Source: Puniceicoccales bacterium (GTDB lineage: Bacteria; Verrucomicrobiota; Verrucomicrobiia; Opitutales; UBA9783). Taken from it: 64,000 nt of DNA. The stretch lies in assembly GCA_031266455.1 (NCBI GenBank), contig JAISBA010000005.1, positions 91,819 through 155,818 of the forward strand, in the 5' to 3' direction. The notes under the pieces were generated by a model that did no database searches, was not told the origin of the DNA, and saw only the letters and a program-made list of their open reading frames with translations. The translations under genes were made by a program, and so were the position numbers. Below, one piece after another: positions 30,767-32,545 of this stretch (within the stretch, counting starts at the first letter, position 1; every line of letters begins with the position of its first letter).

Positions 30767-32545
30767 ATGACATTACAAAAAGTTTATACTTTTTTCACAC
30801 TATTTCTTTTAGTGCCGCTTATTCATGCAGACGTTGATTTTCCTGAATTGGCTGGTAAAATAACAGAATTTGCAAACCAGTTGGAGTCCATTCCAGGCAC
30901 AGATTCAAGCTATCAAGATACAGTTAATCAATTGAGGACAAATGCTGCTGATTTAACGTTCCTAAGTCGGCGCAAAAAAGCCATTGTGCTCATTGAGAAC
31001 ATATTACAGGCTTTGAGAGTAGACCCGAATTTTGAAGCAACACAAGCTTTGAGAGTAGACTTGGATCTTGAAGCAATATTAGAAGCACTAATAGCTAATG
31101 TTCACGATGTTGTAGCTCAACTCGCCGACCGGTCGCTTGCGGATCTTCAAATGGCCGCTCATAACCATTTTTCCAATTTATATCCAGGAGCTAATATTAA
31201 ATTTTCGCTTAAAAAAGCTGGAGGTCAGCTTGGGACTACAGCAAACGTTAATGGTATTCTATATTATATAAAAACCCATCGCTATGGATCAAGCTCTAGT
31301 TCTGGTAAAAAGGATCCCGCAAAACCAGTGGGGCCTAGAGAGCTTTTTGTTTACAGATTTCTTGAATACTCAGGGTTTGGCCCCGAGGTCCATTTCTTTT
31401 GGCTTAATGAAAGAGACTTTTATATTGCAACAAAAGATGTCGGTTATTCAGCAAGCAGAACGATACACATATGCCCCTACGAGACCGTTAAGGCCGAACT
31501 TTTAACCACGGCTTCTCTACACGACCCATCAAAGCAGGTGGTAATACAAGGGCTTTTCTTTCTTGATGCTATATGTCAAATTTTTAGGCTTACTGATTTA
31601 CTTACGAATCCCGGAAATTTTTTCTTTATTGCAGATGAGTCTGATCAAATTTTTGATTTCAAGGTTGTTGATTTTGATCTTATAGGTGAGGGAAAATCGC
31701 CTACAGAAGAAGAACCTGGCACGCCTAAGAAAGGCGATGGCCGGGGGAAAAGTTTTGCTGGTTATTCGCCCGTGAAGGCTGATATCTTGGAAGAAATTCC
31801 GCCAGATTGGAAAAGAAGATTTTTTACTCCGATGATAGGCAGCATTTTGCCTGCAATAGTATACGCATTTCGGGATATATTCCTGTTGCAGAAGGAAATA
31901 CCGTCTCTTGATGTAGATTTTTTGCAGAGATATGTAGACTCAGTTGCGGGTAATCTCTTTGTATTTTCAAAAGAGGTATTGAGTTTTGATGTAAAAACTA
32001 ACCCCATTGATGTGGATTCTTTGAAGCAATATACTCGATCGGTTAGGGAATTTGTAACGGTTCGCCCTACTGTAGTAGAAACAACTAGAATAATAGACGG
32101 AATAAATTTTCGCTTAAGAGACGTTCCTCCTGATGGAGATTGTGGGATTTGGGCCGTACTATTGGCTACAGGAAGGGAACTCAACCGAGAAGCCATGGTG
32201 AATTTACGCCGACAGGCAGCAGAGATGATGCCTCCTCCGGAGCAGCCACCAACAGATGAACCAACAGGAGATGCGTACGCAAGGGCTCCAAATTACGATA
32301 TCCGAAGGGAGCATGATATCCTTGAAATGCCTGGTCGTTTTATTGGACCAGAACATCTTCATTTCATTGGAAAAATTCTGGATGTAACAATTGTGATCTA
32401 TGATGTGACTAATAAGCGGTTCCAAAATATAGACGGGAAACCGATATTAATAGGGGCTGCTATAGAGAATGTTAGGAATGGAGGCATTTTACTCTATTAT
32501 GACGAAAACCGCCGGCACTTCCAGGTAATGGATCTTGTAGAATAA
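30767..32545 (+). CDS. secreted protein, paralog B: kinase-like-motif domain fused to a C-terminal OTU-like cysteine protease domain
   Basis: Signal MTLQKVYTFFTLFLLVPLIHA|D. It shares the paralog blocks and adds a C-terminal DVPPDGDCGIWAVLLATG ... LLYYDENRRHFQVMDL, matching the OTU Cys loop and His loop. Start at ATG 30767 follows the alignment with paralog A. Confidence 0.75.
   Translation: MTLQKVYTFFTLFLLVPLIHADVDFPELAGKITEFANQLESIPGTDSSYQDTVNQLRTNAADLTFLSRRKKAIVLIENILQALRVDPNFEATQALRVDLDLEAILEALIANVHDVVAQLADRSLADLQMAAHNHFSNLYPGANIKFSLKKAGGQLGTTANVNGILYYIKTHRYGSSSSSGKKDPAKPVGPRELFVYRFLEYSGFGPEVHFFWLNERDFYIATKDVGYSASRTIHICPYETVKAELLTTASLHDPSKQVVIQGLFFLDAICQIFRLTDLLTNPGNFFFIADESDQIFDFKVVDFDLIGEGKSPTEEEPGTPKKGDGRGKSFAGYSPVKADILEEIPPDWKRRFFTPMIGSILPAIVYAFRDIFLLQKEIPSLDVDFLQRYVDSVAGNLFVFSKEVLSFDVKTNPIDVDSLKQYTRSVREFVTVRPTVVETTRIIDGINFRLRDVPPDGDCGIWAVLLATGRELNREAMVNLRRQAAEMMPPPEQPPTDEPTGDAYARAPNYDIRREHDILEMPGRFIGPEHLHFIGKILDVTIVIYDVTNKRFQNIDGKPILIGAAIENVRNGGILLYYDENRRHFQVMDLVE

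Follow-up and report, generated by a model that had tools for sequence, protein, structure and literature searches.

A divergent OTU-type cysteine protease domain behind a kinase-like fold in a predicted exported protein of Puniceicoccales

The tandem gene pair considered here, paralog A and paralog B, lies in a 64,000-nucleotide stretch of contig JAISBA010000005.1 (positions 91,819 to 155,818, forward strand) from the Puniceicoccales bacterium assembly GCA_031266455.1; this whole stretch is referred to below as the window, and feature coordinates are those of the window unless another locus is named. We propose, with a probability of roughly 0.6 for the statement as a whole, that paralog B encodes an exported modular protein whose C-terminal domain is an OTU cysteine isopeptidase acting on the ubiquitin or ubiquitin-like modifiers (Ubl) of a eukaryotic host. 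In this proposal a Sec signal would be followed by a helical region, an atypical kinase fold of the HipA/CtkA type, a linker and the C-terminal OTU domain (Table 1). An initial annotation of the DNA had already described an OTU-type domain preceded by a kinase-like domain and a Sec-type signal. Its OTU assignment is upheld by a profile match to OTUD3 in the PDB and by structure searches of the PDB and of a viral library, and the remainder of the arrangement by a conserved N-terminal signal, by invariant residues in the expected order and, less strongly, by a fold match to CtkA, HipA and HipT.

The OTU-type domain spans about 155 residues at the C-terminal end of paralog B. The C-terminal peptide earlier read from 32093 to 32545 agrees exactly with the translation, and the Cys and His codons stand where they had been placed; the domain itself is real, but its fold begins slightly upstream of the start given then (32093), at about 32075, with an N-terminal β-hairpin. 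An AlphaFold2 model of residues 431-592, computed from a 10-sequence alignment, has a mean predicted local distance difference test score (pLDDT) of 87 and a predicted template-modelling score (pTM) of 0.82, and its sole low-confidence part is a Pro-rich loop (model residues 66-76). Searched against the PDB with Foldseek, this model returned 43 matches at E <= 1e-3, and the top 50 matches are OTU domains throughout (E 6e-6 to 2e-3, probability 1.00, template-modelling (TM) scores 0.5-0.6). They include the viral OTUs (vOTUs) of Hazara, Crimean-Congo haemorrhagic fever (CCHFV), Kupe and Taggert viruses along with OTUD3, OTUD2, OTUD1, yeast Otu1, Cezanne, OTUB1 and Otu2. A search of the viral structure library BFVD again recovered OTU domains.

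The link to known OTUs becomes visible only once a family profile and a structure model are used. Scored with the Pfam OTU model PF02338 (clan CA), a check that the initial annotation had proposed for its own assignment, the window domain reaches 12.6 bits (E 0.21), under the gathering score of 23.3 bits, and the highest score in the family (homologous proteins are denoted by P and homologous loci by L), that of P0005 with 18.7 bits (E 0.0025), is likewise subthreshold. Neither the whole protein nor the domain by itself had a match at threshold in Pfam or NCBIfam, and no family member carries a precomputed Pfam domain annotation ('-' throughout), i.e. this OTU subfamily is unannotated by current hidden Markov model (HMM) libraries. 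A single-sequence phmmer search of the PDB produced only spurious PsaI matches to a hydrophobic stretch, while an exhaustive HMMER search with the domain alone against 1.84 billion representative proteins retrieved 5 proteins, with no annotated or canonical OTU among them. With a 5-sequence family profile, OTUD3 and the nairovirus OTUs lead the list from the PDB sequences at E 0.025-1.4; a 10-sequence profile brings this to E 0.009, and profile A6, of 9 sequences including more distant modules, matches OTUD3 at E 1.4e-4 (25.3 bits). In this last search OTUs account for six of the eight listed chains, the permuted EschOTU being aligned at both its His and Cys motifs. If the motifs were a chance resemblance and the domain no OTU at all, the low Pfam score and the failure of exhaustive single-sequence searching to reach a canonical OTU would be readily understood. 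That explanation is scarcely credible in the face of the high-confidence model, its exclusively OTU structural neighbours and the significant OTUD3 profile match; moreover, the D-G-x-C-G-x-W-A motif and the C-terminal His do not vary among 9 members that are otherwise 23-64% identical, which also takes the resemblance beyond chance. A structural match to OTUs has thus been obtained even though the Pfam model remains below threshold, and the C-terminal domain almost certainly adopts a divergent OTU fold.

The predicted catalytic residues fall into place within this fold. In the model a helix begins at C459 of the D456-G-D-C459 loop, and the loop aligns with the Cys loops of OTUD3 (DGNC), vOTU and EschOTU. 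Nine family modules, again 23-64% identical, agree throughout at V, D, G, C, W and A in the Cys loop, at an Ile and a Tyr, and at the His, whose next residue is F or Y in every member. The predicted topology is the C...H-aromatic-x order, a classical arrangement found in OTUB1 and vOTU (PMC7396840). Both residues of the predicted Cys/His dyad are retained. The residue two positions after the His, D/N/E in canonical OTUs, is Gln here and in most members and Leu in P0004. A domain that retained the OTU fold as a catalytically weak or dead, ubiquitin- or Ubl-binding or structural module would account for this substitution, for the subthreshold Pfam score and for the fact that the module is dispensable in two B orthologues (loci L005 and L007). 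Such a loss of activity is improbable: the Cys and His are invariant even in divergent members with unrelated N-termini, and there are documented cases of OTUs that are active with no acidic third residue. SnOTU, an active M1-specific deubiquitinase (DUB), has Leu at this very position, and several OTUs can do without the acidic residue (PMC10643670). The SnOTU example makes a non-acidic residue compatible with activity, and the domain is quite probably, as predicted from its sequence, an active protease.

Among known systems, the nairovirus vOTUs of the L proteins of CCHFV, Hazara, Kupe and Taggert viruses (PDB 3PHW, 7JMS) give the best Foldseek matches (E 6e-6 to 1e-4, TM about 0.6) and share the compact size of about 160 residues and the C...H-aromatic topology. 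They differ in that identity is 11-17%, the residue two positions after the His is Asp in vOTU and Gln here, and vOTU sits in a viral polymerase polyprotein whereas the window domain is the C-terminal module of a protein with a Sec signal. Nairovirus vOTUs also have an N-terminal β-hairpin. In having such a hairpin before the Cys loop the window domain is like SnOTU (PMC10643670). The human OTUD subfamily (OTUD3 4BOU, OTUD2/YOD1 4BOZ, together with yeast Otu1 3BY4) supplies the top sequence-profile match, namely that of profile A6 to OTUD3, and the lowest root-mean-square deviations of the fold matches (4.2-4.9 Å), and has the D-G-N/D-C Cys loop in common with the window domain. Set against this subfamily, the window family has an invariant Trp at Cys+3, a Gly at Cys+1 and a subthreshold Pfam OTU score, and the long subtype to which the window domain belongs bears the Pro-rich insertion noted above. 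The distance from Cys459 to the P-G-R-F-I-G variable-loop region is about 63 residues, and about 45 in the short subtype, so that the helical lobe (about 45-63 residues) has the classical length seen in OTUD OTUs; membership of the LOT class of Legionella, whose helical lobe spans 178-210 residues (PMC7690952), was rejected on this count. Bacterial OTU DUBs of host-associated bacteria are already well established (PMC7396840, PMC7690952, PMC10643670), and ChlaOTU, wMelOTU, EschOTU, BurkOTU, RickOTU, LotA/B/C of Legionella and SnOTU of Simkania likewise combine a bacterial OTU with a eukaryote-associated niche. They carry signals for secretion systems of type III or IV (T3SS/T4SS) or transmembrane helices, whereas paralog B shows only a Sec-type signal, and outside the motifs there is no significant sequence similarity. 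In the literature searched we found no fusion of a kinase-like domain with an OTU, no verrucomicrobial OTU DUB and nothing relevant on verrucomicrobial DUBs or secreted CtkA/HipA kinases, in line with the earlier remark that no precedent for an OTU combined with a kinase-like domain behind a Sec signal was known.

The N-terminus of paralog B is predicted to be a textbook Sec/signal peptidase I signal. The 13-mer window of highest hydrophobicity in the protein lies within it, and it is the sole strongly hydrophobic segment in both paralogues; its cleavage site follows a V/I-x-A pattern that recurs across the family (IHA:D, VRA:D, VYA:N, VHA:L, VNA:Y and VCA:D, with the colon marking the cleavage), and residues 1-22 have pLDDT <50 in the AlphaFold2 model. 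A lipoprotein signal was ruled out, the signal region being devoid of Cys. In the kinase-like region that follows the helical one, K169 ends the third strand, E192 lies in the next helix, D277, N281 and N284 occupy the loop after a long helix and D302-F303 follow the next strand pair; by family alignment and model, these K/E/D/N/D residues are invariant and occur in the expected order. A Foldseek search with the kinase-like model places CtkA of H. pylori first (E 5.5e-3, TMt 0.51, TMq 0.38), followed by HipA and HipT (down to E 5e-2) and other kinase-like folds. The HipA/CtkA kinases (PDB 3AKK, 3HZI, 8EZR) are thereby the best structural neighbours, with the K (β3), E (αC), D/N loop and D-F in the same order, and the PDB entry for CtkA is titled 'proinflammatory kinase'; in contrast to them, where the match reaches only the E-value just given, paralog B has, in addition, a signal peptide and a helical bundle at its N-terminal end. 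Neither HipA, Pkinase nor any other kinase HMM of Pfam or NCBIfam matched, and the N-terminal family profile retrieved only coiled-coil noise from the PDB sequences. Hence, the term 'kinase-like' is supported as a tentative, model-based fold assignment, with kinase catalysis putative. A disordered insertion in this domain recurs among the B-type homologues in the conserved form PSTPKKGDGxGKSFAGY(S/T)PVK, and its T-P-K-K and S-P sites presumably resemble the eukaryotic proline-directed (CDK/MAPK-type) phosphorylation consensus.

In the mechanism that we propose, the protein would be exported by the Sec route with its signal cleaved after Ala21; Cys459, at the N-terminus of the first helix, would serve as the nucleophile, with His584 on the last β-strand as the general base and Gln586 at the third-residue position, and this thiol protease would attack the isopeptide that the C-terminal Gly-Gly of ubiquitin or Ubl forms with host proteins. 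The host would most plausibly be a hindgut flagellate of lower termites, and the kinase-like module may contribute a second activity or targeting within the same host pathway. Protease activity, a ubiquitin or Ubl substrate, delivery past the periplasm and kinase activity are what we infer; of these, a eukaryotic ubiquitin or Ubl as the target has slightly better than even odds. The distribution of the family agrees with such a setting. All homologues come from Puniceicoccales metagenome-assembled genomes (MAGs) or unbinned metagenome contigs, and on these sequences this multi-paralogous family is restricted to one lineage. According to the supplement of PMC11481507, the four GTDB-representative MAGs derive from hindguts of Cryptotermes cavifrons, Cryptotermes dudleyi, Neotermes cubanus and Procryptotermes leewardensis, all of them lower termites of the Kalotermitidae bearing gut flagellates. 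Those Verrucomicrobia that form the 'termite/Nucleococcus cluster' live as symbionts inside the nuclei of termite flagellates (PMC8204192; PMC11257099).

Several observations weigh against this proposal. Beyond the silence of the HMM libraries and the Gln in place of an acidic third residue, the kinase-like model has no PDB match at E <= 1e-3 in Foldseek, and the spacing from D277 to N281/N284 is +4/+7 instead of the canonical +5. The Sec signal reaches the periplasm only, and no link to a type II secretion system (T2SS), T3SS or T4SS was found; the window contains no secretion-system genes, and the OTU effectors known from bacteria are either substrates of a T3SS or T4SS or anchored in membranes (PMC7396840, PMC10643670). 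Ordinary genes for housekeeping and the envelope are found in the window, and the bacterium may live within host cells, as an ectosymbiont or free in the gut. In the most serious competing explanation, the OTU-fold domain would cleave a bacterial substrate as an active papain-like peptidase, perhaps periplasmic or on the cell surface, perhaps as a self-processing or releasing enzyme or as an interbacterial toxin module, and would not act on eukaryotic ubiquitin. It would fit a periplasmic or extracytoplasmic location set by the Sec signal, the want of any host-injection signal or adjoining secretion-system gene in the window and the position of the locus among envelope genes for PBP2, PAP2 and an O-antigen ligase. 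Among the polymorphic-toxin proteins of bacteria, some have been described with OTU-like peptidase modules. However, no immunity-like small gene lies downstream, where PAP2, tRNA-His and thyA follow (tRNA-His and thyA only in the syntenic locus L001), and RHS, LXG and other toxin-delivery domains are absent, so that a polymorphic-toxin architecture was rejected for want of both delivery domain and immunity gene. The nearest structural neighbours, moreover, are all ubiquitin- or ISG15-specific OTUs, and the family is limited to a lineage from flagellate-bearing termites. A bacterial substrate is therefore an unlikely alternative, although a real one, to host ubiquitin or Ubl.

The choice of host modifiers over bacterial ones had earlier been argued from the statement that bacteria have no ubiquitin system. 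This is outdated: bacteria encode operons of the Bil, Bub and CBASS types with E1, E2, Ubl and peptidase components, the peptidases being of the JAB/JAMM or the BubE serine type (PMC11601596). Their existence raises the further possibility that the OTU domain serves an endogenous Ubl pathway of the bacterium as its de-conjugating peptidase. We consider this very improbable, as the characterised systems use JAB/JAMM or BubE and not OTU (PMC11601596), and are cytoplasmic whereas paralog B has a signal peptide. Furthermore, we found no ThiF/E1, UBC/E2 or β-grasp/Ubl gene in the 64-kb window or in L001, and membership of a Bil/Bub-type operon was rejected since these genes are absent nearby. The neighbours of paralog B in the window are instead a hybrid histidine kinase, paralog A, PAP2, tRNA-His, ThyA, DHFR, PBP2 and XerC. 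L001 is syntenic, with tRNA-Cys, an NMT1-like gene, the hybrid kinase, A, B, tRNA-His, thyA, folA, PBP2 and xerC in turn; it lacks the PAP2 gene, and the gap from B to tRNA-His is there just 413 bp.

Paralog A and paralog B are adjacent on the same strand in the open reading frame (ORF) list. As previously noted, paralog A has no OTU domain: its 405-residue ORF terminates at the end of the kinase-like region, before any such domain and without a C-terminal extension. The pair had on this account been regarded as a recent domain gain or loss, a view that finds no support. The A-B tandem is conserved in at least 6 genomes or contigs (the window, L001, L003, L005, L007 and L013), and in a neighbour-joining tree built on the kinase core an A clade stands apart from the B-type sequences and from a third clade, C. 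Since A and B fall into separate clades and the tandem is common to several genomes, the duplication is, to judge from these sequences, older than the divergence of the genomes themselves, and the variation lies among the B orthologues. The OTU is present on B in the window, L001, L003 and L013 and absent in L005 and L007, where B ends exactly at the domain boundary. L005 (3026-4198) and L007 (2989-4161, minus strand) carry their OTU-less A/B pair in another neighbourhood; judged by eye from the sequence, the ORFs upstream of it resemble a platform protein of the GspF/PilC kind and a permease of the LptF/G kind, and those downstream a membrane protein and a radical-SAM enzyme.

The module itself comes in two subtypes: the long form occurs in the window, P0002, P0003 and P0007, and the short form, which is the more canonical, in P0004, P0005 and P0008-P0011. 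P0002 and P0004 have kinase cores that are 73% identical and OTUs of different subtypes, while P0002 and P0003 share 53% identity in the core and 74% in the OTU, i.e. the OTU subtypes are discordant with the kinase core. The module also occurs on unrelated N-termini, as in the LBH52_04225 type (P0014, P0009, P0015), in the small proteins P0013, P0016 and P0017 and in P0012 (513 aa, from a JGI contig), where a Pro-rich linker joins the OTU to a signal-bearing protein of the metallo-β-lactamase (MBL) fold. Taken at the sequence level, the OTU module appears to have been gained, lost or swapped among the B orthologues in a shuffling typical of effector repertoires. An exported MBL-fold protein without OTU is encoded two genes upstream of the A/B pair in L013 (1502-3049, minus strand). 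Some members are incomplete: P0004 begins only at the kinase core, the N-terminal helical region of the OTU-bearing B orthologue of L003 (Cd354_bin116, about 6000-6300) contains a frameshift, and in L006 (Pcl387_bin165, 5998-8364) A as well as B is broken into fragments; the frameshift and the fragmentation represent either pseudogenisation or MAG assembly errors.

The ORF list gives paralog B as 30731..32545, 604 residues from a TTG codon, and the initial annotation had taken over this length. The TTG start is an artefact, the codon being the opening of a conserved upstream TTGACAT motif. As the TTG belongs to this recurring motif and the identical database protein P0001 has 592 residues, the true start is ATG 30767, in which numbering the Cys codon is residue 459 and the His codon residue 584. 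The motif, found by eye and by pattern search, has the form cTTGACATnTTnTAATA and lies 35-36 nt 5' of the ATG in paralogs A, B and most orthologues; it recurs 5' of paralog A in L001 (6683-6698), L003, L005, L007 and L013. The window contains 2 exact matches and one with 2 mismatches, against 0.42 expected by chance, whereas a sigma-70 and terminator consensus scan of the locus did no better than shuffles. The motif may serve as an operator or as a promoter common to these genes, the leader in the latter case being very short or missing, and in either role it suggests co-regulation of the family.

Table 1. Features of the paralog A/B locus in window coordinates.
Feature	Position	Strand	Extent	Remarks
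Conserved upstream motif TTGACATTTTGTAATA	29462..29477	+		35 nt 5' of paralog A ATG; promoter-like or operator-like
Paralog A	29497..30714	+	405 aa	Signal peptide, helical region and kinase-like domain, without OTU
Upstream motif copy TTGACATCTTATAATA	30731..30746	+		36 nt 5' of paralog B ATG; contains the spurious TTG start
Paralog B coding sequence	30767..32545	+	592 aa + stop	Identical to database protein P0001
Predicted Sec/signal peptidase I signal peptide MTLQKVYTFFTLFLLVPLIHA, cleaved before DV	30767..30829	+		Hydrophobicity and conserved cleavage site
All-helical region	30839..31180	+	aa 25-138	AlphaFold2 model
Protein-kinase-like fold	31196..31981	+	aa 144-405	Model pLDDT 68.6
Kinase-like invariant residues	31271; 31340; 31595; 31607/31616; 31670	+	K169; E192; D277; N281/N284; D302-F303	
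Disordered insertion in kinase-like domain EEPGTPKKGDGRGKSFAGYSPVK	31688..31762	+	aa 308-332	pLDDT <50; T-P-K-K and S-P sites
OTU-fold cysteine protease domain (predicted)	32075..32542	+	aa 437-592	N-terminal β-hairpin, Cys-loop helix, helical lobe, central sheet
Predicted catalytic Cys (TGT)	32141..32143	+	Cys459	In PPDGDCGIWAV; Cys loop D-G-D-C-G-I-W-A, helix start
Predicted general-base His (CAC)	32516..32518	+	His584	In RRHFQVMD; Phe585 next; start of last β-strand
His+2, 'third triad' position	32522..32524	+	Gln586	D/N/E in canonical OTUs
PAP2-family membrane phosphatase gene	32821-33435	+		Between paralog B and tRNA-His

Elsewhere in the window, the listed DHFR ORF (34509-35054, plus strand) overlaps thyA (33788-34585, plus strand) by 77 nt; its start is likely the internal Met of MATFKAIAAM…, consistent with the 154-aa DHFR of L001. 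A DUF2608-family protein is encoded at 61571-62386 on the plus strand (E 3.5e-32), and an AAA_22 ATPase followed by two ORFs without a Pfam match occupies 54412-57269, also on the plus strand. Further window ORFs without a Pfam match are those at 5494-6195, 11774-12322, 22116-22922, 25059-25931, 40829-42202 and 44099-44956.

Bacterial OTU DUBs are known from a few intracellular pathogens and insect symbionts, such as Legionella, Chlamydiae, Rickettsia, Wolbachia and others. The present family would extend these to a further phylum, the Verrucomicrobiota, and to termite-gut protists as a new type of host, and would add an OTU subfamily that escapes the current HMM libraries altogether and a new architecture of signal peptide, helical region, HipA/CtkA-like fold and OTU that lacks precedent in the literature searched. 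More tentatively, and with the odds somewhat against it, we suggest that uncultured Puniceicoccales of lower-termite guts, putative kin of the 'Nucleococcus cluster', may use an expanding, lineage-specific family of Sec-exported kinase-like proteins as host effectors, and that the OTU has been repeatedly grafted on these and other carriers to give a bifunctional kinase-deubiquitinase that would rewire protist ubiquitin signalling. If so, these proteins would be the first effector candidates for the symbiosis between flagellates and Puniceicoccales, and the three conserved exported paralogue clades together with the mobile OTU module would offer molecular handles for an association that has essentially none. 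The presence, absence and swapping of the OTU among orthologues would likewise amount to a small natural experiment in effector domain shuffling. Conversely, should the domain prove inactive or act on bacterial substrates, bacterial OTU folds would have to be regarded as unreliable markers of ubiquitin targeting.

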